From: Woeseia sp.
GTDB taxonomy: Bacteria; Pseudomonadota; Gammaproteobacteria; Steroidobacterales; Woeseiaceae
NCBI GenBank assembly: GCA_021773015.1
Contig: JAJFKW010000001.1
Location: 1,283,305 to 1,347,304 of the forward strand
DNA: 64,000 nt
Reading direction: 5' to 3'
This document shows, one piece after another, positions 17,655 to 47,689 of the stretch. The notes under the pieces are model-generated. The model had not been told where the DNA came from. It did not search any database and was given only the letters and a program-made list of their open reading frames with translations. Position numbers and translations under genes: made by a program. Position 1 is the stretch's first letter. Each line of letters opens with the position of its first letter.

Positions 17655-20090
17655 ATGTCTTACGCTAATCCATATTTTACAGCAGCTAAATTGAGTTATG
17701 AATCTTTTTCGTCGACCGACGATGCGATTCAAGAAACTCGCGCTCTATATCAACTGGCCGGAAAAATCGCGAACATAGGTTTCTGGGAGTGGGATGAAGT
17801 CTCTGATAAGTGTATATACTGTTCTGAAGAACTTGCAGATATTCATGGCGTGAACGTCGAGGAATTCCTTCTGCTTTCGACTTCAAATGCCGCTGACAGA
17901 CGATGGATACATCAAGAGGATCGAACGAAATATGAATCCGTAGCACGCCAATTCCACCGCGACCATATCGGCTTTCAAATTGAATACCGTTTGATTCGCG
18001 CCGATGGGACGATTGCCGAGGTAAGCGAAGTCGTTGCGCCGATAGTCGATAATGGTGGTCAGTTACAGAGGTCAATTGGATTTGTAAAGGACATTACTTC
18101 GAGAAAAAATGCTGAATTAGCATTGCAAAAGATTACGGACCTGTTTTCACAAACGGAGGCACTCGCGAACATAGGACACTGGGAATGGGACGAAGTATCC
18201 GACACCTGTATCTACTGTTCAGAAGAACTAGCCCGCCTACACGGCGTGACGGTAGATGACTTTGTCGCATTCACCAACTCGAGCTCGACAGATCTCGAAT
18301 GGATATACCCAGATGATCGGGCCGACTACTTAGCCGCATCGAATAAATATCTAGCGGAACCAAAAAGATGCGAAATAGAGTATCGACTGCAACCAATGAA
18401 TGGCAATCCACTGCACGTTCGCGAAGTATGCGCGCCCGTATTCGATAAGACGAACAAGCTCATTAACTCAATAGGATACGTGCAAGATGTATCCAGTGAA
18501 AGGCGGACTACCGATAGACTTCGACAAGCGCGAGATGAATTGGAAAGCAGAGTTCGGGAGCGAACATCCGCGTTGAGCAAAGCTAACGAGGATCTGATGG
18601 CGAACGAACAGCGCCTGCGGGACGCGACGCGTATCGCGAAACTCGGTTGGTTCAAATGGGACGCCACAGCTAATCGGGGAGTTTACTGCGATGGAGAACT
18701 TGCAAACATATTGGGTGTGCCTGTCGCTGAGTGTATGAATGAGACGATGGATCAGTACATTGCTCGGATTCACGTCGATGATAGAGATCGAGTTAAGCAA
18801 GACTATGCCGATGCCATCGCCATTTTTGGACCGGTAGACATTGAATATCGGCTGATAACCCCGGCAGGTATTGTGCGGCACGTACACGAAATCTCACACC
18901 CAGAAATTGACACGGACGGCATCAGACTACATACGTTTGGAACGCTGCAAGACATAACGGATCGCACCACTATATCGGAGGAACTAGCGGACGTTGAGCA
19001 GAGGCTGCACGAGCTAAGTGCGAATTCGCGCGAAGTATTTTCGATACTCTCTGCCAATTGGCGACAGGTTTTGTACGTTAACCCGGCATTCGAAAATATC
19101 TCCGGTTACGGCTGCAAAGAATTGCTAGCTGATGCCGATATTTGGAAGAATATGTTGCACCCCGATGATCGTGACACGATCATCTCTGAAATGCACGACA
19201 AGATTAGTGACCGAAATCTCGACCCAAGTTTTACAGACTATCGAATCGTCCGCAAAGACAACACTATTCGATGGATTTCTGCTCGTGTGTATCCTATACG
19301 GGACACGACCGGAAAAATTCTTCGATTCGCAGGCGTAGCAGAAGACATTACAGAAAGAAGAGCTGCCGTCGATGCCTTACACCAGGCTCAAAAATCGGAT
19401 GCAATTGGTCAGCTAACCAGCGGAATTGCACACGATTTCAACAATCTGTTAGCCGTAGTTATCGGCAATGCTGGACTACTACAAGGCCGCCTGAATATCG
19501 AGGACGATAAGCTTGTCAACGAGGTTATCGAAGCGGGACATCGCGGCGCTGAATTGACCAAAAGACTCTTGGCTTACTCTCGCCAGCAACCGTTAAAGCC
19601 GGTTAGATCAGAAATCAATAAATTGGTTAGTGGTATGGGTGAACTCTTACGTCGTACATTGGGCAACGGCATCGTTGTTGAGCTGGACTTAATCAAAGAT
19701 GTCGTATACGCAATGGTTGATCCAAGTCTGCTGGAGAGCGCAATTTTGAATTTGGCGTTGAACGCAAGGGACGCAATGCCGAATGGTGGCAAACTTACGA
19801 TTGGCACTTCGCGATGCACGAAACGCCACGAATCGCAACTCGCAACGAACAATCAGAGCGCATCGTCGTACATGTCAATCGTAGTTCGCGACAATGGAGT
19901 CGGAATGTCAAGCGAAGAATCGTCACGTGCTGTGGAGCCGTTTTACACTTCCAAAAATACTGGCGATGGCAATGGCCTTGGCCTCCCGATGGTCTATGGT
20001 TTTGCAAAACAGTCTGATGGAGATCTCTTGATTGATAGCCATCCGGGGACGGGTACTTCTGTCACAATATACTTACCCTGTAGTATTTAG
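17655..20090 (+). CDS. multi-PAS (about 4 PAS/PAC) sensor histidine kinase
   Basis: 811 aa. Repeated GFWEWD / GHWEWD / GWFKWD PAS cores. HisKA (IAHDFNNLL) and HATPase_c (GNGLGLPM...GTGTSV). Confidence 0.85.
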   Translation: MSYANPYFTAAKLSYESFSSTDDAIQETRALYQLAGKIANIGFWEWDEVSDKCIYCSEELADIHGVNVEEFLLLSTSNAADRRWIHQEDRTKYESVARQFHRDHIGFQIEYRLIRADGTIAEVSEVVAPIVDNGGQLQRSIGFVKDITSRKNAELALQKITDLFSQTEALANIGHWEWDEVSDTCIYCSEELARLHGVTVDDFVAFTNSSSTDLEWIYPDDRADYLAASNKYLAEPKRCEIEYRLQPMNGNPLHVREVCAPVFDKTNKLINSIGYVQDVSSERRTTDRLRQARDELESRVRERTSALSKANEDLMANEQRLRDATRIAKLGWFKWDATANRGVYCDGELANILGVPVAECMNETMDQYIARIHVDDRDRVKQDYADAIAIFGPVDIEYRLITPAGIVRHVHEISHPEIDTDGIRLHTFGTLQDITDRTTISEELADVEQRLHELSANSREVFSILSANWRQVLYVNPAFENISGYGCKELLADADIWKNMLHPDDRDTIISEMHDKISDRNLDPSFTDYRIVRKDNTIRWISARVYPIRDTTGKILRFAGVAEDITERRAAVDALHQAQKSDAIGQLTSGIAHDFNNLLAVVIGNAGLLQGRLNIEDDKLVNEVIEAGHRGAELTKRLLAYSRQQPLKPVRSEINKLVSGMGELLRRTLGNGIVVELDLIKDVVYAMVDPSLLESAILNLALNARDAMPNGGKLTIGTSRCTKRHESQLATNNQSASSYMSIVVRDNGVGMSSEESSRAVEPFYTSKNTGDGNGLGLPMVYGFAKQSDGDLLIDSHPGTGTSVTIYLPCSI

Positions 20091-20153
20091 GCTATCGGGC
20101 TTTGTGAATTCCACAGTCTGGACATTGAACAAAAAGGACATCTGGGAGTAAGA

Positions 20154-21800
20154 ATGTTAGTAGATCATGAATGTATGAGATTGTCGGCGCTTCGGCAGTA
20201 TGACGTTCTTGATTCGCCGCCCGAAGAAGACTTTGACCGAATTACGGCGCTCGCAGCTCGACTCTTCGATGCGGAAATCGCCTGCATTACACTGGTCGAC
20301 CAAGGTAGATTCTACTTCAAGTCCACTTTCGGAGTTGACGTCAAGGAAACCGCCCGCCGGCCTGGCTTTTGCAGTACCGCTATTGAAAGCGATGACGTCT
20401 ACTGTATAGAGGATGCGAGAGCTGATCCTTTCTACGATGACCACCCTATGGTAATTCAGCCTCCGCATATTCGGTTTTATGCTGGTTCAGCCTTGAGAAC
20501 GGACGACGGATTTGCAATCGGTACTTTATGTCTGATGGATTCTAGTTGTCAGGCATTCGGCGACGCTGAGAAAAAACTGCTGCGCGAGTTGGCTGAATTT
20601 GTAATGTTTCATCTTGACCGTAGAAAGTGGCTGTTGGACTCCAAGAAAAGGGAGGAAAGCATACGCAATGTCCAAAAACTAGAAAGTCTGGGTCTGTTGG
20701 CTAGCGGGGTTGCACATGACTTTAACAACCTACTTGTGGGCGTGTTGGGGAATGCTAGTTTAGCGTCGCATCAAATCGGACAAGATGAACCGGCCCAAGA
20801 TGCAATAGCTGACATTGTCCATGCCGCCAATCAGGCAGTGAAGCTCACGGACCAACTACTCGCGTATGCTGGTCAGCGTACGACGAGCCCATCTCCGATC
20901 GATTTGAAGCATATGTTAGCTGAAATGGCGCCGCTTCTTCGAAGTTCTGTGTCCGCAAACTCGTTGATAGAAGTCGACGTAGAGGACGGATTGAACCAAA
21001 TCGTGGGCGACCTTACGCAATTGCGACAAGTGGTATTGAATCTCGTAACAAATGCATCTGAATCGTATGGCGGAAAAAGTGGTCGGATCCATATTCGCCT
21101 TGGCAAATTCCACGTCGACAACCCAGAGCTCTCAGGCGCAATCATAGGCGATTTGACAAGTGCAAATTATGTAGCTCTTGAAGTTGAAGACGACGGCTGC
21201 GGCATGGATGACGAAACTCTAAGTTCCTTGTTTAGCCCATTCTTTACCACGAAAATTTCAGGACGCGGTCTGGGAATGTCGATAGTACAACGCATAGTAC
21301 GGACACACGACGGGTTCATTCATGTCGAGAGCAGCTTCAATCGTGGTTGTAATGTAATGGTTATTCTTCCTACCGGAGATGGCAAACGGCGGGCACCGGA
21401 AGAAGGCCAATCAAATGTGCGGCCGCTGAAATCTGGAAGCGGAACAGTCCTCGTTGTGGACGATGACGAGCTAGTGTTGAAAATAACTACATCGGCTGTA
21501 AAAAGTTTCGGATTTGACGTTATTTGCGCGACTGACGGTAATCAAGCGGTACGGAAATTACAATGCGAAACAGACATAAGTGCGATTGTTCTTGACGCGA
21601 CAATGCCTGGCATGACCGGCGCAGCGACGCTCGAGGAGGTACGCAAATCGAGACCGCATCTGCCTACCGTGATCACAAGTGGCCACCATGTCGACGAAAT
21701 ATCATTCCAATTCAGCGAGTTCGACAAATTAACCTTTCTACACAAACCCTGGACTATCGAGGCATTATCGGGCGCTTTACGCGAAGCACTTTCGAAATGA
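20154..21800 (+). CDS. hybrid sensor histidine kinase: GAF domain, HisKA, HATPase_c and C-terminal receiver
   Basis: 548 aa. GAF-like N-terminus, H-box VAHDFNNLL, G-boxes DDGCGM...GRGLGMS, receiver VLVVDDDE...VLDATMPGMTG...KPW. Confidence 0.85.
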   Translation: MLVDHECMRLSALRQYDVLDSPPEEDFDRITALAARLFDAEIACITLVDQGRFYFKSTFGVDVKETARRPGFCSTAIESDDVYCIEDARADPFYDDHPMVIQPPHIRFYAGSALRTDDGFAIGTLCLMDSSCQAFGDAEKKLLRELAEFVMFHLDRRKWLLDSKKREESIRNVQKLESLGLLASGVAHDFNNLLVGVLGNASLASHQIGQDEPAQDAIADIVHAANQAVKLTDQLLAYAGQRTTSPSPIDLKHMLAEMAPLLRSSVSANSLIEVDVEDGLNQIVGDLTQLRQVVLNLVTNASESYGGKSGRIHIRLGKFHVDNPELSGAIIGDLTSANYVALEVEDDGCGMDDETLSSLFSPFFTTKISGRGLGMSIVQRIVRTHDGFIHVESSFNRGCNVMVILPTGDGKRRAPEEGQSNVRPLKSGSGTVLVVDDDELVLKITTSAVKSFGFDVICATDGNQAVRKLQCETDISAIVLDATMPGMTGAATLEEVRKSRPHLPTVITSGHHVDEISFQFSEFDKLTFLHKPWTIEALSGALREALSK

Positions 21801-25023: not shown

Positions 25024-25388
25024 ATAATATGGACAGCGAAACGAACTTTAAATGCCAGCCATCGGAAAAATAGGACCGTTCGTCGGACACTAACCGGCTA
25101 TCCAGCAGAATTGACCGCTTGTCGCGCTCTCTAGAAGCGTAGCAGATACTTGTTGCGATGAACTAGGGCGCTGGCCGCTCCCTTGAAGGCGTGTCAGAAG
25201 TGCGCCCCGCTAGGGATGAGTATCCAGCCATTGCTGAAACCCTTCAAAGAATTTGCGGTCTTCGCCCAGAATTTCGTCTAGCCGAGGTCTTTCGGTCGCC
25301 TCGGTGTCCGGAAAGCGCAAATTTCTCTGCCTGGGTTCGTGACGATCTTCGAAAGATCTCCGGACAACGCAAAACCCCCTACCGGAGA

Positions 25389-25712
25389 TCACTCTCCGTT
25401 ATCTAACCAAATCTCCTCACAATGCAGGCAATAATCGATTCGGTTATCGACCAAAGTTCCGATACGGTATTTGGTCATGACTCTTCGCCAATTGATGCAA
25501 ACTTTCGCAGAACGCGAGTATTCGACGGGCAGCTCAACCGCTTTGGCAATGGGCTCACCAGACTTGTCTGGATGCAATTCCTAGCACCGGCTATATGTCG
25601 CGCGATTAAGCAAAACACTTGCACATTGTTCACATCCGTATGCTGGCAAGGAATCGCTAAGTGGCGCGTGCTCGAATATCTTATTTGTACAATTCGGACT
25701 TGCGGCCATCAT
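25389..25712 (-). CDS. small zinc-ribbon-like protein (zf-TFIIB-like C..C...WLD motif) interrupted by a single in-frame TAG; either a 43-aa peptide plus downstream remnant or a pseudogene
   Basis: Strong RBS GGAGG-N4-ATGATG at 25709-25712. Translation is MMAASPNCTNKIF...YGCEQCASVLLNRATYSRC*ELHPDKSG...IDYCLHCEEIWLDNGE. The TAG is at 25581-25583 and the downstream part is in the same frame. Confidence 0.4.
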
Positions 25713-25765
25713 TCAACCTCCATGCGTCAATTTGCGCTTCGAGAGAAATCAGTGCCTTGTTAAAA

Positions 25766-28700
25766 TCAATCTGATTGGTCCACGTGCTTTTTTAGTTCGG
25801 AAACATCTTCGGCCAGACCTTTGAGTTTTTCGTGTGCTGCGACATCTAACGCGATTCGCTTATCCATACTCCGCACTAGCGGGAATAACGTATGTTCGAT
25901 TGTCTCGTTAAGTGTCCCGAGCACTTGCGCAAATTCTTTCGAAGGCCTGTTGGTTATCGATACACTGCTTTTATGCGACTTTACGGCGCTGCCCAGTGCA
26001 TCCAGCGACTTTTTTATTTTATCTGCGGTTTGCACGTATTCGGTGTGTTGTTTCGACAATGGGCCCGCCGGCTCAAGAGCCGCACCGAGCGCGGATATAC
26101 CTTGTACTAAATCGCCAATCTGTGCCGCAATTCGCAGGCCGGCATCCGTATCGTCGCCGCCCATTAACTTATTACGCAAATAGCCCTTCTTTATTTGTTC
26201 CCACCGCTCAACATCGGCCTCATCTTGCGACGCCAACAACTCAGAAAGTTTAAGTAGATTGGCCTCAGTACCCTGTGTCAGCAATTGCGCCTCACCACGG
26301 TAATGATCGCCAATCATCTGTTGGAGCTCTACATCGTTCATTGCAGAAGAAACCTTTTCGGCAAGCTTGTTCATGTTTCGATAACTACCTTGAAGCAAGA
26401 ATCGCGGTTCCGTTCGATACTTATCATCTTGCGCCGCTGATGCGATGTATTGTTTGTTAACTTTGAGAACCACGTCCTGAAGAACAAAAAGTCGCTTAAA
26501 TACTCTTACAATTTCAGATACCTCTGCTCCGCTATACTGATGCTTCAAGTCAGTGGTCGCGACATTACCTCCTCTGGCTCGCTCAATTAGCTTGTAGATA
26601 TCGTCCATGTCTCGCATAGCGAGCGGCGCCAAAACCGCATTCGACGTCAAGGAGTTCTCTATATAACTTAATTCGAATTGGCGCTCCTTCCCACTGAGAA
26701 CGTCACCCAAATTGTAGATATCCGCACGATTTGCAAGCATATCCGGAATTTTGAACACCTCACCCGATTCGGTGTAAGGGTTACCCGCCATGACAACGCA
26801 GAATTTCCGACCTCTCAAGTCGTACGTTCGCGTTCGACCTTTCCAAACGCCGTCTACACGGCGTGTTGAGTCGCACAGAGATATGAACTTCTGCAAAAAC
26901 TCGGCGTTCGTGTGCTGAATATCGTCTAGGTAAAGCATCACGTTGTCGCCCATTTCGAAAGCCAAATTGAGCTTGTGCAGTTCTTGCCGAGCGGTAGCGT
27001 TCGGTGCCATTTCTGGGTCAAGGGAAGTTACATCATGGCCAAGTGACGGACAATTTATCTTCATAAACGTCAATCCCAACCTACTTGCAACGTACTCCAT
27101 CAGCGTAGTCTTCCCATATCCTGGCGGCGAGATCATCATGAGCAAACCCTGCAAATCGGACCGTTTTGATTTACTAACAGTGCCGATTTGCTTTGCCAGG
27201 TTATCGCCAATAATTGGCAGATACGCGTCATTGATTAGTCGGTTACGCACGAATGAACTTAGAGGCTTTGGCTTGAACTCTTCTAGGCGCAGGTCCGCAC
27301 GCGCTGCATTTGCAGCGTCGCGTCGCAACTTTTGGTATCTATGAAATTTTGGTATGACACTGTTGCAATGGTCGTCCATTTTCAGCAAATACTTATCCAA
27401 AGTCACCGGCAATTCGCCATTTGCTATTATCGAGTGCTGACCAAACAAGTTTTTGACGGAAAACTCAACATCGGCGTTAATCATTCGGCGTTGCAGGCGC
27501 TTGCCTACAATGAGAATTGCTGCCGCTTCGGGCGCGTAGTGCAAGAGTTCGCTTTCACCCGCCGCATCAAGTGCCGCGCAGAGCCACGCATTCGCCACTC
27601 GCCATTGTTCTTTTGGCCTCGTCCGTAGGCTGTCTAACGTCCCCTGGACTTGTTTGAAAAGGTCCGCTTTCAGTGACTTTCGCAGTAAATCCAGCGCGCT
27701 CTTTGCGTGTTTCGATTGAGCGAATTTGCAGGGAACCCTGCGCAGCTCGGCTGCAAGGTAAATTGAACACCTGCGGATTGTTGAATCGTCAATCTCTAGG
27801 TGGTGGAGCGCCGCAAAATTGTTCACATGATTCGATATTTCCGCCTCAATCAATTCAATCGCTCGCGGATCAGAGAACTTTTCGTTCATCTGTCCCGCTG
27901 AAATCGCACGTTCCGGCAAAGACTGCAACGAATTCTCGGCGCCCTCGGACGAAGAGGTCTCAACTAAGTTTGCCCAAATTAGCTGGGCATATCCCCGGCA
28001 CAGCGGATCGAATCGCAATAAGTCGCTCTTGTTGATTGCAGGAACAATACAGCGGAGTATCGTGCATGCATCCGCGTCGTGGATACCTTTTTCGTATCCC
28101 TCCCTGTACCGTGGCGCAGCAAAGTTTTGCACGAGCTTTCCGAGTGCTTCACTGTTTTCGGCCAGGCTGGTGAGCTTGTTCCAATCTGTTTCTAATGAAC
28201 CGGAACGAATGTCATCCAACAGCCGGTACGCTAGATACTCCCCTCGATATACAGTCGTTGTTTCGGACTCAAGGCCTAGCGTCCAGTACTTGCGGAGATC
28301 GTTGAGTTCGGGATGATCAATATTTTCGAAATACTGCGTTCCGACCAAGTGCAGCGCCAATCCGTCATCTCGAGGTATGATAGTTAAGTCCAGGTCCTGC
28401 GTATTGACGCTGAATTTGTGTGCTGATCCCAGCTTAATAACCTTGCCACCGTCCGAGAATAGGTCCGTCTTATCCCTGAGTGACCGCAGCGCTTGATTAC
28501 GAATCATCTTCAATCGTGAATCGACATCGTCAGCTTTTACTGAACTATCTAGTTCGCGAAGCTGTTCGACAATATCTCGCACTTTGATGACAAGGGCGTC
28601 TGAAGCCAGATATGTATTCAGCTCATCGTCACTTTCAAATCGACGTGTGCGCCGCTCAATGTTCTCGAGCATTCGACCAGCAGCGTCGGCGAGAGTTTGC

Positions 28701-31018
28701 GCCCGTGAATTTCTTGCATCGAGCAACTGCTGTTTACGCGCTTCGAAGGCTTCATAAACCTCCTCACGCTTGGCAATTATGTCTGCAACAAATTTATCCT
28801 GTTCGCTGAATTGGCCTTCCATCTCCTCCAATTGAATAAGCAGGCGTGCTAGCAACTCCTCGCATCGTTCCGGTGAGTTTGCGACCCCTAAAGCATTTGT
28901 AACACTTTGCGAAAAAAGTTTAAATTGGGCACCGAATTGCTCAACCGATTCCGACGTACCAAGGCGTTCTTTTCGTTGCCGACCACGTGATCGCGTCTGA
29001 TTTAAATTTGAATAAACATCCGATATTGACTCCACTATTCTGGTCTGGATCGTCGCGTCATCAACATTTAATGTGGCGATTAGGTCCGAAAGCAAATCGA
29101 GACCTGCCGCAATGTTATCCAGTTTATCTAGCTCAGGCACTAGTTCAGCGACAGTTTGCCGTTGCTTTATTGAGGAATCATGAGACTCGATCTCCTCAAT
29201 ATAGGAGTCCAATGCATGTGTTCCCGCCAGAAACTCAGCGGCTTCTTTGCCTACTGAGTCGTTGAGAGCAAGTAGTTCGGAATCCATAGCCGCTATCCGA
29301 TCAACATCGATATACCTGTACTCTTTGATCGTCGCAAGATGGCCACGGTGACTTCGAATTTCGTTGAGCGCCTCAACGTATTGATCAATATTGCGCCAAT
29401 CGGTACTGTCTACCGTCGTCGATATTCGTTGTTGTTCGCCTTCCGCGTCTGTCATCGCCAAGGCCGATTGCCGTCGAATGCTCTCAACTTTTTCGAATTC
29501 ATCTACGATTAGCTCGACAGTTTCTCTAATTTCTCGGACAACTGTGCCGATAGCAGCCGCTTGACCTTCTCGAATCCAAAAATAATCGTCAAACAACTTT
29601 TCCGCAGCCTTCCGAAGAAATTCGTAGTGTTTTACCGATACGGATTCATCTTTGATAATTCTGCATAAGCTGAAGAAGTCGGACACGCCGCGAACGAGTT
29701 CGGCATTACCAATTCTTGAAAAAAACGACTGACCCGCGGGGATGGTATTGAAGAATTCCTCATCCCCGTACGGTGTAGTCCATATCTGCATGGGGTGAAT
29801 TCGCGCCGGTTCGTCGCCCGCAGTAAATACTATGACTGTTCCGTCGCGCGCGAGCGCGTAACCGTGACTGACTAATGGATTTTGCAGAGACTTTGAGATT
29901 ACGTTGTACGACAAGAGTGCGACGACACCCTTGGTTGGTTCATAGAACACGAAAAGAACGTCTTCACCGTTGGGTGAGCGCATCTTTCGCTTGAATTTCA
30001 AGCCGCGCGTATCTATGCCGAATGCCTTGTACTCGCCAGTTTCCAGATAAATTCCTTCGGGAAATATGATTCCGTGGTCCTCTGGAAGCTGAACACATGA
30101 ATCAGCAAGGGAGTCGATCTTTTGTATTTCTGATGTACGCGTGTTGTATACCAGATACCGCCAGCGGATTTCTTTGTAAGGTAATATTCTTACGAGAATT
30201 AGTGCTCCGACTCTCGCATACTCGAATTCAGCGTCGTCCAGTGACTGGGTTACGTCATCCACGGGCTCGCTATACACGCCGCGTCCAACTTCCGTATTGT
30301 CTTCAATTTTTACCGTTAGATCACCATTCGTCGTCTCGACAAACAATTCGTCGAGTATGTTGACGTGTGGGTGGCGGCCGTGTGAAATATCTTCACGTTT
30401 GGTCGGCATCCATTCGAATTCATAAGACTCGGGGAGCTCCAGATCTCGCTCGCCACGGTTATCAATGTAGGTAACGTCGTTATCGTTCGAAATATCCCAG
30501 CGAAAAACTCGCCGATCATCCAAGCGTTCGCCAATCTGGAATCCAGCTAGAAGTCTTCCGCCCTTTTGCACTAGCTGCACGAGGCGAGTTTCTTTGTAGT
30601 ATCGGTAAAGTTCGCCGAAATCTTCCCGAAATTGGGCATCCGATAGAAAGCTCCCGCCTATGGAGACTTGCTCCATCGTATGCTTATCACCGTCAACAAT
30701 CAGCTTGTACAACGAGAACACATCTTCCACTTGAGTAGATTTTTTCAATCCAATGAAAACGTTGTATCCGAATAGCAGCAATTCGCCGATCTGGACTATG
30801 TCTCGCCCAACGCAATTGTTCTCTGTTCTCACTCGTGTTCGAGCGACTACTGTCATTTCTGTTGCACCGAATTCTTCAGCGCGAGCAGAATTCAAAGAGA
30901 TCGCTTGCTTTTCCAGCGAATCGCCATGTTCGATCAGGCGATTACGAATAATTTCGTAGGCACCGCCGTCGGCGACCGCCTTATCCACGAGTTCAGTAGT
31001 TCGACTCTCGTTTGCCAT
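25766..31018 (-). CDS. giant (1750 aa) AAA+ ATPase: beta-rich N-terminal region, long helical/coiled-coil middle, AAA+ core near residue 1300. It resembles large proteins annotated as 'DNA repair ATPase' (DUF3686-like).
   Basis: Walker A ISPPGYGKTT at 27104-27121, Walker B VMLYLDDIQ, sensor-1 VVMAGN. It begins 64 nt downstream of the flotillin stop. Confidence 0.85.
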   Translation of the reverse strand: MANESRTTELVDKAVADGGAYEIIRNRLIEHGDSLEKQAISLNSARAEEFGATEMTVVARTRVRTENNCVGRDIVQIGELLLFGYNVFIGLKKSTQVEDVFSLYKLIVDGDKHTMEQVSIGGSFLSDAQFREDFGELYRYYKETRLVQLVQKGGRLLAGFQIGERLDDRRVFRWDISNDNDVTYIDNRGERDLELPESYEFEWMPTKREDISHGRHPHVNILDELFVETTNGDLTVKIEDNTEVGRGVYSEPVDDVTQSLDDAEFEYARVGALILVRILPYKEIRWRYLVYNTRTSEIQKIDSLADSCVQLPEDHGIIFPEGIYLETGEYKAFGIDTRGLKFKRKMRSPNGEDVLFVFYEPTKGVVALLSYNVISKSLQNPLVSHGYALARDGTVIVFTAGDEPARIHPMQIWTTPYGDEEFFNTIPAGQSFFSRIGNAELVRGVSDFFSLCRIIKDESVSVKHYEFLRKAAEKLFDDYFWIREGQAAAIGTVVREIRETVELIVDEFEKVESIRRQSALAMTDAEGEQQRISTTVDSTDWRNIDQYVEALNEIRSHRGHLATIKEYRYIDVDRIAAMDSELLALNDSVGKEAAEFLAGTHALDSYIEEIESHDSSIKQRQTVAELVPELDKLDNIAAGLDLLSDLIATLNVDDATIQTRIVESISDVYSNLNQTRSRGRQRKERLGTSESVEQFGAQFKLFSQSVTNALGVANSPERCEELLARLLIQLEEMEGQFSEQDKFVADIIAKREEVYEAFEARKQQLLDARNSRAQTLADAAGRMLENIERRTRRFESDDELNTYLASDALVIKVRDIVEQLRELDSSVKADDVDSRLKMIRNQALRSLRDKTDLFSDGGKVIKLGSAHKFSVNTQDLDLTIIPRDDGLALHLVGTQYFENIDHPELNDLRKYWTLGLESETTTVYRGEYLAYRLLDDIRSGSLETDWNKLTSLAENSEALGKLVQNFAAPRYREGYEKGIHDADACTILRCIVPAINKSDLLRFDPLCRGYAQLIWANLVETSSSEGAENSLQSLPERAISAGQMNEKFSDPRAIELIEAEISNHVNNFAALHHLEIDDSTIRRCSIYLAAELRRVPCKFAQSKHAKSALDLLRKSLKADLFKQVQGTLDSLRTRPKEQWRVANAWLCAALDAAGESELLHYAPEAAAILIVGKRLQRRMINADVEFSVKNLFGQHSIIANGELPVTLDKYLLKMDDHCNSVIPKFHRYQKLRRDAANAARADLRLEEFKPKPLSSFVRNRLINDAYLPIIGDNLAKQIGTVSKSKRSDLQGLLMMISPPGYGKTTLMEYVASRLGLTFMKINCPSLGHDVTSLDPEMAPNATARQELHKLNLAFEMGDNVMLYLDDIQHTNAEFLQKFISLCDSTRRVDGVWKGRTRTYDLRGRKFCVVMAGNPYTESGEVFKIPDMLANRADIYNLGDVLSGKERQFELSYIENSLTSNAVLAPLAMRDMDDIYKLIERARGGNVATTDLKHQYSGAEVSEIVRVFKRLFVLQDVVLKVNKQYIASAAQDDKYRTEPRFLLQGSYRNMNKLAEKVSSAMNDVELQQMIGDHYRGEAQLLTQGTEANLLKLSELLASQDEADVERWEQIKKGYLRNKLMGGDDTDAGLRIAAQIGDLVQGISALGAALEPAGPLSKQHTEYVQTADKIKKSLDALGSAVKSHKSSVSITNRPSKEFAQVLGTLNETIEHTLFPLVRSMDKRIALDVAAHEKLKGLAEDVSELKKHVDQSD

Positions 31019-31082
31019 TGACAGATCCTTTCATAGCGTGGCGTCGGAAATGGGGCGACTGTGAGTCGCTCCCAGAAACAAC

Positions 31083-32918
31083 TTACGATTTACCAGCAGG
31101 TCCTGAAACGTCTGCTGTTTCCGATCCCATGCTGGCAACTTTCGCCAACAGCGCTTGGATCACTCCGCTCTTTTCCGCAAGACCGTCAACAGCCTTGCCA
31201 ATCGACAGTGACTTCGCGAAATTGTCGAAGAAATGCTCCTCGCCTCCGACGATGTCGATGTGCGCCTTTTCAAGAGCAATTGCCAGAATTTCGGCATTTT
31301 CTTTCGCAATCTCTTTGCCGGCATCCATAGACGCTAACGCTTCTTTAAACGCTGTTTCCAGCCCCATACGATATTCTTCATGGGCTCTCGTTTCACCCGT
31401 CATTCCAGCCATTGCCGCAAACTTATCCGTCAATCCTTCGGCCTCCGCCTGGAATTGCGCTTTTGTGACGTTGGCGTTCGCCATACCCACCTCAGTCTTC
31501 GCAGAAGCTTCCGCTGCACCCTTTGCTCTGACGATGTCAGCCTCGGCCAGTCCAGATGCGGCGTCCTCCGCCTGCACGCCCTCGGCAAGCACCTTCTTGG
31601 CGTCAGAGTCTTTTCCTGATGCAATGAGTCTTGCTTCCGCAAGCGTCGTAATTTCGGCTGCCTTGTGAGTTGCCGCAATTTCTTGGGCTTTCGCGGCGGT
31701 TGTTTCTTTGACCTTCTCTTCTTCAGCCTGCGCCTGAGCGGCTAAGACCTGAACCTGTTTCAAGCGATCCGCCTCCGAAACTTCGCGAACCTCCTTAATC
31801 CTTTCCTCTTCGACCGCCACTGTTTTGTCGACGGCAACACGCTCTCTAATGACGTTTGCAATTTCCTTTTTCTCAACCTCGACTGCTTTTTCAGCAAGCA
31901 CGGTTTCTACACTGACCTCACGCTCTCTAGAAACGACTTCTAGATCGCGTGCTCGCACCACTTTCTCTTCCTCGATTGCAACAGCACGTTGTCGATTTTG
32001 ATCGGCGACTTCGATTTCGCGTTTCTGATTTTCAGTTTGAACGAGCAGATCTTGCTCTACTTGTATATGTGTTGATTCGGCCTTGCGCCTCTCCTCCTCC
32101 TGTATTTTTCGCGTCTCCGCTTCTTCCCGCGCTTGGACGGACAGAATTTCCCTCTGCTGCTTGGCTTCCGCGTCTGCCTGTTGGCGTTCCAGCTCCAACA
32201 TAGCTTCAACCGTGCTGACATCTTTTTTCTTGATAGCCAATTGTTCGTCACGTTCAAGTTCGTTTGTCCGAACATTCTGTGTCGCGGTCAATTCAGTTAT
32301 TTTCTTGATGCCCTCAGCATCAAGAATATTTGTTGGGTCAAGCGCCGCCTTAGGAGTCTGCTCAAGGTAGTCGATCGCGACATCTTCTAGTACGTAACCG
32401 TTTAGATCATCGCCTATGACCTCAATAATTTTCTCTCTGAAGTCCTGCCTATTCTCAAATAGACTGACAAAATCGACTTGCTTGCCAACCGTTTTTAGTG
32501 CCTCAGAGAACTTCGCCGAGAACAATTGGTCGACGGCGGCCTGATCTGATGCACGATATGCGCCGATGGACTTGGCTACTTTCAATACATCTTCTGCCGT
32601 TTCATTTACACGCAAGTAAAATGCCACGGAAATATCAGCCCGCATGTTGTCTTGACAAATTAGGCCATCGCTACCACGTCTATCAACTTCTAGCGTAATT
32701 AGCGATATTTTCATTAGCTCTTTTTTGTAGATTATTGGATAGACCAGCGCTCCAGTGAAGTGAACTTTTGGCCTAGCACTCATATCGTTTACGATTAGCG
32801 CCGTGCCTTGTTCAACTTTGTAATAAAACGCCTTAAACATTCCAGCGAGGCCCAATAACACAAGGACCACCACGCCTGCCCATGTGAGAATAGGCATCAA
32901 TACGGTCAGGTCTGCCAT
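31083..32918 (-). CDS. yqiK: flotillin-family protein (SPFH/Band-7 domain, YqiK-like) with a long charged coiled-coil
   Basis: N-terminal TM helix followed by an SPFH domain. Its E/R/K-rich coiled-coil is typical of YqiK. Start at ATG 32918 (MADLTVLMPIL) with a GGAG RBS; the ORF extends to a TTG at 32978. Confidence 0.8.
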   Translation of the reverse strand: MADLTVLMPILTWAGVVVLVLLGLAGMFKAFYYKVEQGTALIVNDMSARPKVHFTGALVYPIIYKKELMKISLITLEVDRRGSDGLICQDNMRADISVAFYLRVNETAEDVLKVAKSIGAYRASDQAAVDQLFSAKFSEALKTVGKQVDFVSLFENRQDFREKIIEVIGDDLNGYVLEDVAIDYLEQTPKAALDPTNILDAEGIKKITELTATQNVRTNELERDEQLAIKKKDVSTVEAMLELERQQADAEAKQQREILSVQAREEAETRKIQEEERRKAESTHIQVEQDLLVQTENQKREIEVADQNRQRAVAIEEEKVVRARDLEVVSREREVSVETVLAEKAVEVEKKEIANVIRERVAVDKTVAVEEERIKEVREVSEADRLKQVQVLAAQAQAEEEKVKETTAAKAQEIAATHKAAEITTLAEARLIASGKDSDAKKVLAEGVQAEDAASGLAEADIVRAKGAAEASAKTEVGMANANVTKAQFQAEAEGLTDKFAAMAGMTGETRAHEEYRMGLETAFKEALASMDAGKEIAKENAEILAIALEKAHIDIVGGEEHFFDNFAKSLSIGKAVDGLAEKSGVIQALLAKVASMGSETADVSGPAGKS

Positions 32919-32964
32919 ATCACTAGCTCCAGTTGTTGATTTTTGTTTTGTTTGTTGGAGCAGA

Positions 32965-33645
32965 TCACTCGCCAACAAACTCTTCTTCTGAAATCACTCG
33001 ATAAATATTTTCGCTATTTAGTTTTTCGAATATCACGACCCTGTCGCCACGTTCAAAACGATCATCCCCACTGGCTCTGACCTTCAGGATCAGGCCAGCG
33101 CCACCATCATTGAGCGTCGCCTCTCCAAATTCGCGGTCAACTCTGGAGGTTCTAACGATTGCCGTTTGACCCAGCACCTGCTTGATAGTTTCTTGGGTCG
33201 CTTTCTCAAATAATGGGCGAAGCGGTTTAATGAATACACTCGTGATTTTCGCCGCAACGTATAGGGTGACCGCTAGGACAGGCAATCCAGCAACATAGCG
33301 CAACAATCCGTCGGGTATTGCCCAGAACAACAAAAACACGGTGTAGTAACAAAGCATCCAGCCAGTCAATACCAAGATCGAAAGCGACACCGTGACCGGT
33401 ACACCAACCAATCCTAATCGCAACAAGAGTCCTGCAAGCACTTCCGGCGTCGTGTGCGACGACTCGCCGCCGACGTCCACGCTATCGAAATCAAAATCTA
33501 GGATATCCAGGTCAACCAAACCGAGCACCGCCCCAGCCCAGAACAGGACACAGATTAATAAAAGCACCGTGTAAAAGGCCGTGGGGAATGACCCAATATT
33601 CTGGTAAAACGGATTCATCTCATCACTTAAGAATATGGCGAACAT
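32965..33645 (-). CDS. yqiJ: NfeD-like inner membrane protein (YqiJ-like: N-terminal TM helices plus C-terminal OB-fold beta domain)
   Basis: 226 aa. Hydrophobic N-terminal two-thirds, then a C-terminal beta-rich region (TAIVRTSRVDREFGEATLNDGG...VVIFEK). It sits immediately upstream of flotillin, like the E. coli yqiJK pair. Confidence 0.7.
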   Translation of the reverse strand: MFAIFLSDEMNPFYQNIGSFPTAFYTVLLLICVLFWAGAVLGLVDLDILDFDFDSVDVGGESSHTTPEVLAGLLLRLGLVGVPVTVSLSILVLTGWMLCYYTVFLLFWAIPDGLLRYVAGLPVLAVTLYVAAKITSVFIKPLRPLFEKATQETIKQVLGQTAIVRTSRVDREFGEATLNDGGAGLILKVRASGDDRFERGDRVVIFEKLNSENIYRVISEEEFVGE

Positions 33646-33666
33646 TGGGCTCTCCCTACAATAAGA

Positions 33667-34362
33667 CTATGCTTTTGACTGCCGATTTTTTAGTCGTTCA
33701 AGTACTTCTTCTGCACTCTTGCTTTTTACCTTTATGCCAGCGTCTTCCAAGCGACTATCGAGCGATTTGTCATCTGTTTCGTCCGCTAATTCGCGCGCCG
33801 CATTCATTTCGGCTGAACGCAATGCCTGACGTTCTTTGATGCGGTCCAGAGAGTCCATTGCAGTCCTCAGTTTCGTATTCGAACCGCTATGACGTTCTGA
33901 AACCGCGGCCTGCGCACGTTGGACATTGTCGGTGGCTTTTACGGTATCGATTTGCTGTTTCATCCGCTGTATATCCCGCTCGGCTGCTTTGATTGCAGAT
34001 CGCAGCTGCTCAGCACTTGTGGCATAGCCCGCACCAGCTTCTTCTTCTGTTTTGACTTGGTTTTCCAGATTAGCGATTTTCGCTGCAACCTCATGTGCCA
34101 AGTCCATATCGTCTTTATCGAGCGCCTTGAGCGCATAGCCTTCATTATCCGCAATTTTCGTTCGGACGTTGGCTGATTTCTCTTCCGACAACTTTTGCCT
34201 CGCGATGATGGCTGCCAGACTATCTTTGGACTGTCTCAACTCGTCAGATGAGTCTCTTATTTCCTGATCGAGTATTCGCAGAGCTTGGCTATCGACGATC
34301 GCCTCACCAGCTTCGTTTGCACCCCCTCTTAATGCGGTAATCATTTTGGCCCAGACGTTCAT
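33667..34362 (-). CDS. yjfJ: PspA/IM30-family protein, YjfJ-type paralogue
   Basis: 231 aa. Aligns along its length with E. coli YjfJ (LDQEIRDSSDEL, TVKATDNVQRAQAAV, LDSRLEDAGIKVKSKSAEEVLERL). Strong RBS GAGAGGAGA upstream. Confidence 0.85.
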   Translation of the reverse strand: MNVWAKMITALRGGANEAGEAIVDSQALRILDQEIRDSSDELRQSKDSLAAIIARQKLSEEKSANVRTKIADNEGYALKALDKDDMDLAHEVAAKIANLENQVKTEEEAGAGYATSAEQLRSAIKAAERDIQRMKQQIDTVKATDNVQRAQAAVSERHSGSNTKLRTAMDSLDRIKERQALRSAEMNAARELADETDDKSLDSRLEDAGIKVKSKSAEEVLERLKNRQSKA

Positions 34363-34375
34363 TGTATTTCTCCTC

Positions 34376-34993
34376 TCAATTGTCCGTTACGGACATCAAT
34401 AAATCTGCATATGCTTCAGTTGCATTGATCACATTGCTTCCAAGTACTTCTATCTCGTAGACAATATCGCCGAGATCGGACGCCGAGCTCAGTGAGCCGA
34501 ACATAAAGTAGTAGTCGTCATCGGCGCGCTGGCCAAGGCAAATGGTCGACAATGGGAAATATTTATGGGTACGCAACACCGATTCATTGAATTCTCTTTC
34601 ATCACGTACTTCTGAAACTGGCCACAATACTGCCTCGACGATAATTTGCTCCCCAGCGACCGTTAGAAATATTGGTAAATCGCCATATTCGTGCATCACG
34701 ACGTGTAGGGTGGGATCCAAGCCGTCAATCAGTTCCACGCTTGCGTGCTTATCACGTACCAAGGCTGTTTCGACGAGATCGTCGTATAACGCACCAGTTC
34801 GCCAAAGCGGGCGATGAGAATGTCTTTCACCGTTTTCTTCTAAGGCACGCGCCCCCACGCGCAGGTCTTTTTCCAGTGCGCGCGCCTTATCTGAGTTTTC
34901 TGGGCGAATCCAAATTTCCTTTTTGATTAGGCCCTGGTCTCGCAAACGTCGCCGGTATTCGCGTTGGTAATGTGCTGATGTTTTCACGTTCAT
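34376..34993 (-). CDS. first gene of the operon; tentatively YjfI/DUF2170-like with a basic N-terminal extension
   Basis: 205 aa. Assigned from its position upstream of the yjfJ-like gene; N-terminus MNVKTSAHYQREYRRRLRDQGLIKKEIWIRP is basic. The family call is tentative. Confidence 0.6.
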   Translation of the reverse strand: MNVKTSAHYQREYRRRLRDQGLIKKEIWIRPENSDKARALEKDLRVGARALEENGERHSHRPLWRTGALYDDLVETALVRDKHASVELIDGLDPTLHVVMHEYGDLPIFLTVAGEQIIVEAVLWPVSEVRDEREFNESVLRTHKYFPLSTICLGQRADDDYYFMFGSLSSASDLGDIVYEIEVLGSNVINATEAYADLLMSVTDN

Positions 34994-35008
34994 GGCAACA
35001 CTTTACAC

Positions 35009-35044
35009 TGTTACATGTAATTACGCAAATTATTACATGTAACA
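35009..35044. promoter_or_regulatory. candidate operator: two copies of the perfect 10-bp palindrome TTACATGTAA separated by 12 bp, lying 16-51 bp upstream of the 34993 start codon
   Basis: Read directly: TGTTACATGTAA-TTACGCAAATTA-TTACATGTAACA, a 12-bp perfect inverted repeat overall. Confidence 0.5.
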
Positions 35045-47267: not shown

Positions 47268-47689
47268 AATGTTGCTTTCAGCGACTCCAGTGCACGACGG
47301 TTTGTCCATGACCAAACGGTGGCAATGGCATCGTCGATATCGGTCCACTTCGCGGCGGAGTGTTCTGCAGAACTCAACCGCAACTCCTGCCTCGCAGCTA
47401 GCGGGCACATGTATTCGTACTCGACATTCTCGACAACACCGGGCGAAAATCGGTCGCGCCATCTCTCGTCAATCGTAAATTGCCGGGTTACACCAGTATA
47501 GTGAAGCTCATTTTGCAACCCTGTTTCTTCAAGTAATTCGCGACGTGCCGCCTCATCATGATTTTCGGCGGGCTGCAGACTGCCGGTCACAGATTGCCAA
47601 AATTCGAATGGCTTTACGCGTTTTAAAATCAGCACTTCGCCATCATTCGTATATACGACGACCAATACTGACTCTGGGCGCCTAAGCAT
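47264..47689 (-). CDS. NUDIX hydrolase
   Basis: Nudix box GSLQPAENHDEAARRELLEETGL. Start at ATG 47689; the stop overlaps the next gene's start as ATGA. Confidence 0.75.
   Translation of the reverse strand: MLRRPESVLVVVYTNDGEVLILKRVKPFEFWQSVTGSLQPAENHDEAARRELLEETGLQNELHYTGVTRQFTIDERWRDRFSPGVVENVEYEYMCPLAARQELRLSSAEHSAAKWTDIDDAIATVWSWTNRRALESLKATL

Follow-up and report, generated by a model that had tools for sequence, protein, structure and literature searches.

A bac-like operon in Woeseia sp. joins a PspA pair, a flotillin/YqiJ-like pair and a giant AAA+ ATPase behind a predicted promoter with paired operators

The DNA considered here is a 64 kb stretch of a Woeseia sp. genome (contig JAJFKW010000001.1; hereafter the window), and our subject is an operon of five intact genes that runs on its minus strand from 34993 to 25766. 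The operon is real; a pair of genes for PspA-type membrane repair and a pair for a flotillin/NfeD-like scaffold are combined in it with a giant AAA+ ATPase (Table 1). Listing and translation of open reading frames (ORFs) gave six co-directional ORFs between 34993 and 25389, separated in order by 13, 21, 46, 64 and 53 nt. A preliminary description of this DNA had proposed six tightly spaced co-directional genes, which is correct as far as the ORFs and their spacing are concerned, while the sixth of them is not an intact gene. It had also given every gene a ribosome-binding site (RBS); Shine-Dalgarno-like sequences do precede genes 2-6, but gene 1 has none, the predicted -10 element ending 6 nt before its ATG. 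No terminator-like site was found on the coding strand at any gene junction in a generic promoter/terminator scan, a scan that was itself uninformative, since shuffled sequence gave more sites and the weak promoter of the window went undetected. Co-transcription in the window is thus indirectly supported by gaps of 13-64 nt, by an RBS before each of genes 2-5 and by the lack of terminator-like sites at the junctions.

Table 1. Features of the operon and of its upstream region (positions in the window unless given in amino acids, aa)
Feature	Position	Strand	Basis
Distal operator, palindrome TTACATGTAA within the 12-mer GTTACATGTAAT (35032-35043)	35033..35042	-	exact match
Predicted -35, TTGCGT, between the operators; TTGACA-like in relatives	35023..35028	-	sequence, alignment
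Proximal operator, palindrome TTACATGTAA, in the 17-nt promoter spacer	35011..35020	-	exact match
Predicted -10, TAAAGT, 6 nt 5' of the gene-1 ATG	35000..35005	-	sequence, alignment
Gene 1, BacA-type, 205 aa	34376..34993	-	Pfam, NCBIfam, PDB, AlphaFold2 (AF2)
Gene 1, N-terminal basic helix/strand/helix domain, ~46 aa (aa 1-46)	34856-34993	-	conservation
Gene 1, C-terminal DUF2170 / CesT-YbjN-like chaperone domain	aa 64-197	-	Pfam
Gene 2, PspA/IM30 family, 231 aa (BacB / YjfJ-like)	33667..34362	-	Pfam
Gene 3, YqiJ-like (NfeD-like) multi-pass membrane protein, 226 aa, C-terminal soluble β-domain, BacC-type	32965..33645	-	hhalign
Gene 4, YqiK-like flotillin, 611 aa, transmembrane segment + SPFH/band-7 + long coiled coil, BacD-type	31083..32918	-	hhalign
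Gene 5, ATPase, 1750 aa (BacE-type)	25766..31018	-	Pfam
Gene 5 domains	DUF3686 aa 35-480; DUF7902 aa 601-684; long helical middle; AAA+ aa ~1283-1500; C-terminal helical region	-	Pfam
Gene 5, Walker A, PPGYGKTT	aa 1298-1305	-	invariant in aligned homologues
Gene 5, Walker B, MLYLDD	aa 1361-1366	-	invariant in aligned homologues
Pseudogene of a ~180-aa protein, two TFIIB-type zinc ribbons + C-terminal helical domain	25213..25712	-	alignment, tblastn
Pseudogene lesions	in-frame TAG 25583-25581; in-frame TGA 25391-25389; frameshift near 25335/25329	-	alignment to intact homologues

The gene content described before (YjfI-like, YjfJ/PspA-like, YqiJ-like, YqiK-like flotillin and giant P-loop ATPase) was upheld by comparisons with Pfam, NCBIfam and PDB and by hhalign. 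The gene 1 product matches Pfam DUF2170 (5.9e-47) and, end to end, the NCBIfam family 'biofilm formation regulator BacA' (6.1e-84, 280.6 bits). Its residues 63-199 alone match the structure 8Q8O (BacA of Pseudomonas aeruginosa, PA14_16140) with E 1.8e-35, and this C-terminal domain is 38% identical to Escherichia coli YjfI. The AF2 model of gene 1 fits 8Q8O with a TM-score of 0.97, followed by YbjN/AmyR and type III secretion chaperones, in a fold search that was dominated by the CesT-like domain when the full model was used. Gene 2 covers the PspA_IM30 profile over its full length (aa 2-230 on profile positions 1-220 of 220, 5.6e-46), and its identity with E. coli YjfJ is 37% across 230 aa (E 2e-39). 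Gene 5 matches Pfam DUF3686 at 5.7e-194, together with DUF7902 and with AAA, AAA_5 and AAA_22 above cut-offs.

The two middle genes are far more divergent. Neither gave a Pfam or NCBIfam match even at E = 10, in four lineages including the window, nor any match in the PDB with single sequences or profiles as queries; Pfam NfeD and DUF1449 for gene 3, and Band_7 and Flot for gene 4, remained silent because the genes are too divergent. Their homology was therefore established through hhalign to E. coli YqiJ and YqiK, with query profiles of 24-25 orthologues each (25 sequences for gene 4). Gene 4 aligns with YqiK at 99.9% probability (E 2.9e-32) over 406 columns from residue 12, an alignment that spans the transmembrane segment, the SPFH domain and the coiled coil. 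We place its start at ATG 32918, which is preceded by the RBS TGGAG, while the maximal ORF begins at TTG 32978. Gene 3 aligns with YqiJ at 92% probability (E 5.6e-7), in a stretch of 139 columns that takes in the C-terminal region; the NfeD/YqiJ assignment of gene 3, which would make its C-terminal β-domain OB-like, is the weakest of the protein assignments made in the preliminary description.

We surveyed the ATPase loci of relatives, 80 in all (cited by L numbers; one genome per species), by tblastn with the window proteins; the 68 of them in which 4.7 kb or more of sequence precede the ATPase are informative for gene order. Genes 1-2-3-4-5 are colinear in 47/68, genes 3-4-5 occur without the first two in 21/68, and a locus in which the ATPase lacks a YqiJ-like or flotillin gene was not found (0/68). 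Throughout the set (68/68), the YqiJ-like gene keeps its position upstream of the flotillin gene. From these counts, the ATPase is tied first to the flotillin pair, and the DUF2170-PspA dyad is a frequent add-on. The synteny between the ATPase and its upstream genes, on which the earlier proposal had been staked, is thus present for the flotillin/YqiJ-like pair in all 68 loci and for the DUF2170-PspA pair in 47 of them. The locus occurs in Pseudomonas, Cellvibrionaceae, Lysobacteraceae, Xenorhabdus, Gilliamella and Alteromonadaceae, and further in Comamonadaceae, Zetaproteobacteria and Longimicrobium. The unit is widespread across Gamma-, Beta- and Zetaproteobacteria and Gemmatimonadota, and the ATPase family counts at least 4450 homologues (E ≤ 1e-10). 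The nearest of these is 65% identical to the window protein, and the closest relatives of the window copy come from Woeseiaceae-like metagenome-assembled genomes (63-65% ATPase identity). Such a conserved, vertical distribution looks like that of a core stress system rather than a defence island.

The best studied relative is the bac (biofilm-associated cluster) operon of P. aeruginosa, first described as four genes (PA3732-PA3729) and now comprising bacABCDEF (PA3732-PA3727 / PA14_16140-16200; Macé 2008; Wallart 2024). It begins with bacA, for a DUF2170/CesT-like protein of ~206 aa, and has the same five genes as the window in the same order. At the locus of P. paraeruginosa (L024), where bacA-F stand in this order and the ORFs of bacB-bacE code for 231, 213, 688 and 1746 aa, colinear tblastn gave identities with the window of 48% (BacA), 53% (BacB), 44% (BacC), 59% (BacD) and 52% (BacE), the last over the full length of gene 5. 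Reverse-transcription PCR (RT-PCR) in strain PA14 showed that the six genes bacA-F are co-transcribed, and in a bacA transposon mutant BacB-F over-accumulate 6- to 13-fold (PMC10948618). Furthermore, bac mutants have defects in biofilm formation, rhamnolipid production, swarming and virulence, and PA3728-PA3732 are raised in a stress proteome (PMC13637947). We consider it likely that the window locus is the orthologue of bacABCDE, that is, a chromosomal, vertically conserved system for stress response and remodelling at the cytoplasmic membrane.

The same architecture has also been recognised by comparative genomics. Ravi et al. 2024 (mSystems, PMC11237479) describe a class "CesT/Tir–PspA + band-7/flotillin + YqiJ/YuaF + AAA+", made up of a CesT/Tir(DUF2170)-PspA dyad, a YqiJ/YuaF-type protein with three transmembrane segments, the flotillin and the ATPase, sometimes with a PLD hydrolase, and they report abbreviated flotillin/YqiJ/ATPase versions as more widely distributed. 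The component list is identical to that of the window, and both the abbreviated operons and the optional PLD gene recur in our 80-locus survey. The view that this architecture is uncharacterised thus has to be given up, on account of this class and of the bac operon alike, for which mutants, proteomics and the BacA crystal structure 8Q8O already exist. The architecture is already described, and the window locus is a further copy of a published, still poorly understood operon type. The BacA N-terminal domain, the paired operators and the leaderless-type promoter treated below are not mentioned in the papers that we read on bac or on this class; in the passages of Ravi et al. that were read, the zinc-ribbon accessory gene is likewise absent, together with those three.

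In E. coli the two pairs are apart, as the preliminary description had it, and a giant ATPase adjoins neither. YjfI and YjfJ of the yjfIJ(KLMC) operon are the homologues of the gene 1 C-domain and of gene 2 at the identities given above, while YqiJ and YqiK of the separate yqiJK operon are related to genes 3 and 4 by profile comparison. YjfI, moreover, has neither the N-terminal domain of gene 1 nor the upstream operator.

One difference between bac and the window concerns the gene after the ATPase. In P. aeruginosa this is the PLD-family bacF (PLDc_2 in L024), whereas the window has a decayed gene for a double zinc-ribbon protein instead and no PLD homologue. Intact homologues of ~180 aa (in L076, L008, L016 and others) align with the region, to which tblastn assigned two segments in different frames (E 2e-17), and Pfam Zn_ribbon_TFIIB gave weak matches only, one per half. 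The region holds two short ORFs that share a reading frame, 25712..25581 and 25577..25389. The second, which had been taken for a zinc-ribbon gene closing the operon, is a fragment of this decayed gene with its two stops and a frameshift; the TGA stands where the homologues have a conserved Trp, and Cys ligands are lost in both ribbons of the window copy. Downstream sequence was sufficient in 72 loci; the ATPase is followed by a PLD gene in 20 of these and by a zinc-ribbon gene in nine, with a zinc-ribbon gene nearby in four more (13/72 near the ATPase). The closest relatives of the window (L004, L079, L003) have neither. Because a PLD gene lies downstream in only 20/72 loci, bacF is an optional component, and the sixth gene, to judge from these alignments and counts, is a dispensable, variable accessory of the operon class that has become a pseudogene in the window genome. 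Where intact, the double zinc-ribbon gene is an unstudied accessory component of the PspA-flotillin-AAA+ operon class.

How the operon is controlled can be approached through its upstream region. The upstream palindrome noted earlier is confirmed as two copies of TTACATGTAA, a conserved operator-like element among 45 related loci. The arrangement upstream of gene 1 is GTTACATGTAAT-N10-ATTACATGTAAC, and these two sites are the only occurrences of TYACATGTRA in the whole window, where 0.24 would be expected by chance. A palindrome with a YACATGTR core stands upstream of gene 1 in 41/45 loci, in at least two copies in 38/45; in at least 35 of the 45 the proximal core begins at -26±1 relative to the ATG, and the distal core lies at -48±2 in most of them. 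Within 150 nt upstream of gene 1, YACATGTR reaches a density of 12.1 per kb, as against 0.007 per kb elsewhere in these loci (1.1 Mb). Upstream of gene 3, the core is absent in the 22 loci without an N-terminally complete gene-1 match. Additionally, an anchored alignment of 40 loci revealed a conserved TTGA(C) at the -35 position, between the operators, a 17-nt spacer filled by the proximal operator, and a hexamer TAnnnT that ends 6-7 nt short of the ATG from locus to locus. This layout is conserved from Pseudomonas to Comamonas, and L024 shares both it and the two operators. The 8-nt core also occurs in the window at 47406 and 63939 without the full 10-nt palindrome, probably as chance matches. 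From this layout we predict a σ70-type, repressible promoter for gene 1 whose mRNA would be leaderless or nearly so, because the -10 element lies 6-7 nt from the ATG; the leaderless reading fits the missing RBS before gene 1.

A candidate for the factor that binds these operators is the N-terminal domain of gene 1 itself. Its ~46 residues are conserved in all bac-type gene-1 proteins, with invariant Arg, Lys and Trp positions and the pattern M-x-x-K-S-S-A-H-Y-Q-R-x-x-R-x-R-L-R-E-Q-G-L-V-K-K-E-V-W-I-L-P-E…E-K-x-L-R, and they are missing from the 8Q8O chain and from YjfI. The MazE-like antitoxin family PF11455 (DUF3018), whose members are small DNA-binding domains with a dimeric fold, matches 28 of 43 gene-1 N-domains below threshold, with a best E of 7.5e-4; the window copy scores 14.6 bits against a gathering cut-off of 22. 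Searches of the PDB sequences with the N-domain gave no match. The literature search gave nothing relevant on the operator sequence or on DUF3018. The domain also occurs as free-standing proteins of 46-60 aa (P0302-P0306). A Lysobacteraceae subgroup (L041, L047, L051, L054) has an altered helix 1 (S-T-x-[YH]-[VQ]-R … R-E-R-M-R), and in the same four loci a single variant operator, TT[TA]CATGTAAG, replaces the two canonical ones; the two changes together may reflect co-variation of protein and DNA.

Read together, the N-domain, the operators, the promoter layout and the loss of repression in the bacA mutant suggest that this domain lets BacA act as a direct repressor of its own operon. Control by an unlinked factor, or by σ54 with an enhancer-binding protein, would leave BacA with a purely post-transcriptional role or that of a CesT-like chaperone of PspA, and in our judgement this is unlikely. 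It draws on Wallart 2024, where a σ54 promoter (-24/-12) upstream of P. aeruginosa bacA and a chaperone-type regulatory role are proposed, and on the fold of the C-domain, which resembles type III secretion chaperones and YbjN/AmyR, proteins that regulate via protein or RNA partners; the N-domain, for its part, shows no significant likeness to a solved DNA-binding fold. Yet within 250 nt upstream, the σ54 consensus TGGCAC-N5-TTGC found no better match than one with four mismatches, be it in the window or at L024, and over 46 upstream regions it scored no better than in control coding segments. Furthermore, the operators are confined to loci with the gene that carries the N-domain, where they keep fixed positions over -35/-10-like elements; the domain, rich in invariant Arg and Lys, is the only conserved unexplained module of the operon; and it is precisely the proteins of the downstream operon genes that are de-repressed in the bacA mutant.

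The giant ATPase poses the question of what it acts on. Its invariant motifs also include GNP and, after sensor 1, VVMAGNPYTESGEVFKIPDMLANRAD, the latter to the eye like the MoxR/AAA_5 pattern. Profile searches of the PDB with gene 5 yielded similarity at the level of Walker A only, to p97, Rix7 and RuvB. One possibility is that it acts mainly on the PspA polymer instead of the flotillin scaffold, as a Vps4-like disassembly motor for an ESCRT-III-like filament. PspA belongs to the ESCRT-III superfamily and shares the operon in 47/68 loci, and Ravi et al. liken PspA-linked AAA+ ATPases to Vps4 (PMC11237479). The survey, however, points the other way: 21/68 loci pair the ATPase with the flotillin/YqiJ-like genes and have no adjacent PspA/DUF2170, and in none does the ATPase occur without the flotillin pair. 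Nor was a MIT-like domain detected in the ATPase, and the motifs after sensor 1 (NP...G...P..L..R) look MoxR/AAA_5-like rather than Vps4-like, the fold evidence being inconclusive. We therefore give this alternative a clear minority share of the probability, and rather favour the flotillin scaffold as the main substrate.

Many source annotations, and the Pfam description of DUF3686, call proteins of this kind 'DNA repair ATPase', which would make gene 5 functionally unrelated to the membrane genes before it. Weak P-loop matches to RuvB, recJ downstream in Pseudomonas and recA about 10 kb away in the window could be read in this sense. We found no experiment behind the label, however, and no mention of DUF3686 in the literature searched; the RuvB similarity is confined to the Walker A region, and Pfam detected no nuclease, helicase or DNA-binding domain in gene 5. 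Moreover, the gene follows the flotillin/YqiJ-like pair in 68/68 loci and is co-transcribed and co-regulated with it in P. aeruginosa. We have accordingly set the label aside as a name, and a repair function detached from the membrane genes seems to us extremely improbable.

A phage defence of the abortive-infection type had been listed as plausible in the preliminary description. As a defence system, the PspA and flotillin proteins would sense the membrane and trigger the giant ATPase as effector. In P. aeruginosa, PA3728-PA3732 go up together in every sample infected with phage (PMC12041424). Defence systems often contain large P-loop ATPases and PLD nucleases or lipases, a BacF is present in 20/72 loci, and PADLOC returned very weak matches to IetA and mad8 that cover the P-loop only. 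The defence reading finds no support in PADLOC or in the genomic context, however. PADLOC-DB v2 gave nothing above noise (E ≥ 0.0018, partial P-loop or coiled-coil matches). The GC content of the operon matches the rest of the window, and its flanks hold ordinary chromosomal genes, housekeeping genes such as alaS and recA among them. One flank carries an amine oxidase, alaS, recA, a glycosyltransferase and a LigT-like protein, and the other a short-chain dehydrogenase/reductase, a glutathione S-transferase, PAS/GAF histidine kinases and a LysR regulator. No integrase, mobile-element genes or compositional anomaly were found at the flanks of the locus. Gene order is conserved across whole genera, unlike that of patchy defence islands. 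Induction by phage, finally, is typical of general Psp envelope-stress responses and indeed a defining behaviour of them. We regard a defence function as improbable, and return to the reading of the operon as a membrane-stress system.

In mechanistic terms, the flotillin-like protein and its YqiJ/NfeD-like partner would build an oligomeric SPFH scaffold on the inner membrane. The giant ATPase, the only energy-using component, probably engages this scaffold via its N-terminal domain and long helical arm, and its AAA+ ring probably assembles, disassembles or remodels it; the PspA polymer may be a further substrate. The PspA-family protein would act as an ESCRT-III-like effector that coats and seals damaged membrane. 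The BacA-type regulator, in turn, would bind through its N-domain the two TTACATGTAA operators, which flank the -35 element and fill the spacer, and so repress the σ70-type leaderless promoter, while its CesT/YbjN-like domain would bind a partner, for which the PspA paralogue is the likeliest candidate. Once PspA is recruited to a stressed membrane, repression would be relieved, in a partner-switch loop analogous to PspA-PspF. That both parts hold together, BacA as a one-component autorepressor that senses free PspA and the DUF3686-AAA+ protein as a dedicated ATP-driven remodeller of flotillin cages, is a tentative proposal to which we give somewhat less than an even chance. Its more general part, membrane stress response and remodelling by PspA, flotillin/NfeD-like proteins and an AAA+ motor, had been suggested before and is in line with published inference.

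Known systems offer partial parallels. The classical Psp system (pspF-pspABCDE) and PspA/LiaH of Bacillus subtilis have the PspA/IM30 effector and the envelope-stress context in common with the window operon, and in Bacillus (pspA-ydjGHI, yuaFG/floT) PspA is coupled to an SPFH protein and an NfeD-like partner, as it is here. Negative feedback via a PspA-binding regulator, as in PspA-PspF, parallels the circuit proposed above. The Psp system differs in that the proposed regulator of the window operon is a CesT-like protein with a small N-domain and that the operon has a dedicated giant AAA+ ATPase; no match to PspF, PspB or PspC was found among the operon or flanking proteins. With ESCRT-III/Vps4, the operon shares a polymer-forming protein of the ESCRT-III superfamily (PspA) and a co-encoded AAA+ ATPase. 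Compared with Vps4, however, the window ATPase is about four times larger, has DUF3686 rather than MIT as its N-terminal domain and is genetically tied to flotillin rather than to PspA.

Several observations weigh against the picture drawn here, and they concern each of its parts. As regards orthology, the NCBIfam BacA score of gene 1 falls just short of the 300-bit equivalog cut-off, and co-transcription of the window genes is a presumption carried over from the orthologues. As regards regulation, the PF11455 matches of the N-domain stay below the gathering score and are mutually non-independent, the AF2 model of the N-domain monomer is of low confidence (predicted local distance difference test, pLDDT, 53-76), and the promoter of the window agrees with the consensus at only 3/6 positions in the -35 and 4/6 in the -10 element and scores under the cut-off in the generic promoter scan. 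The proposal by Wallart et al. of a σ54 promoter in P. aeruginosa conflicts with the σ70/leaderless reading. In the ATPase, Asp replaces the catalytic Glu of Walker B (window 26900-27130, aa ~1298-1370) in all aligned homologues, and hydrolysis may therefore be atypical, slow or switch-like. The AF2 model of aa 1240-1640, built on an eight-sequence alignment, is poor (pLDDT 63), and the best Foldseek matches of the AAA+ model, NorQ and RuvB (E ~2e-3, TM-score < 0.3), are not decisive; because of this poor model and these weak matches, we leave the AAA+ clade (MoxR-like or other) unassigned.

If the proposal holds, the operon would be a bacterial counterpart of an ESCRT-III/flotillin/AAA+ membrane-repair machine, and the BacA family would be a previously unrecognised type of autorepressor, whose ~46-aa DNA-binding module is found in free-standing mini-proteins too. 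In P. aeruginosa, the unit is tied to biofilm formation and virulence as well as to phage or envelope stress. The reading leads to testable predictions, namely that the N-domain of BacA is an operator-binding repressor, that the promoter is σ70-type and leaderless rather than σ54-dependent, and that the obligate partner of the ATPase is the flotillin/YqiJ-like pair rather than PspA.

Two minor features of the surroundings complete the description. On the plus strand at 17655-21800, some 4-8 kb away from where the operon ends at its 3' side, lie the genes of a multi-PAS histidine kinase and of a GAF-HisKA-HATPase-receiver hybrid, both large sensor kinases. A 218-aa Ala/Ser-rich ORF on the plus strand (31012-31668) runs antisense to the coiled-coil region of the flotillin gene and is most likely a spurious reverse-frame ORF.

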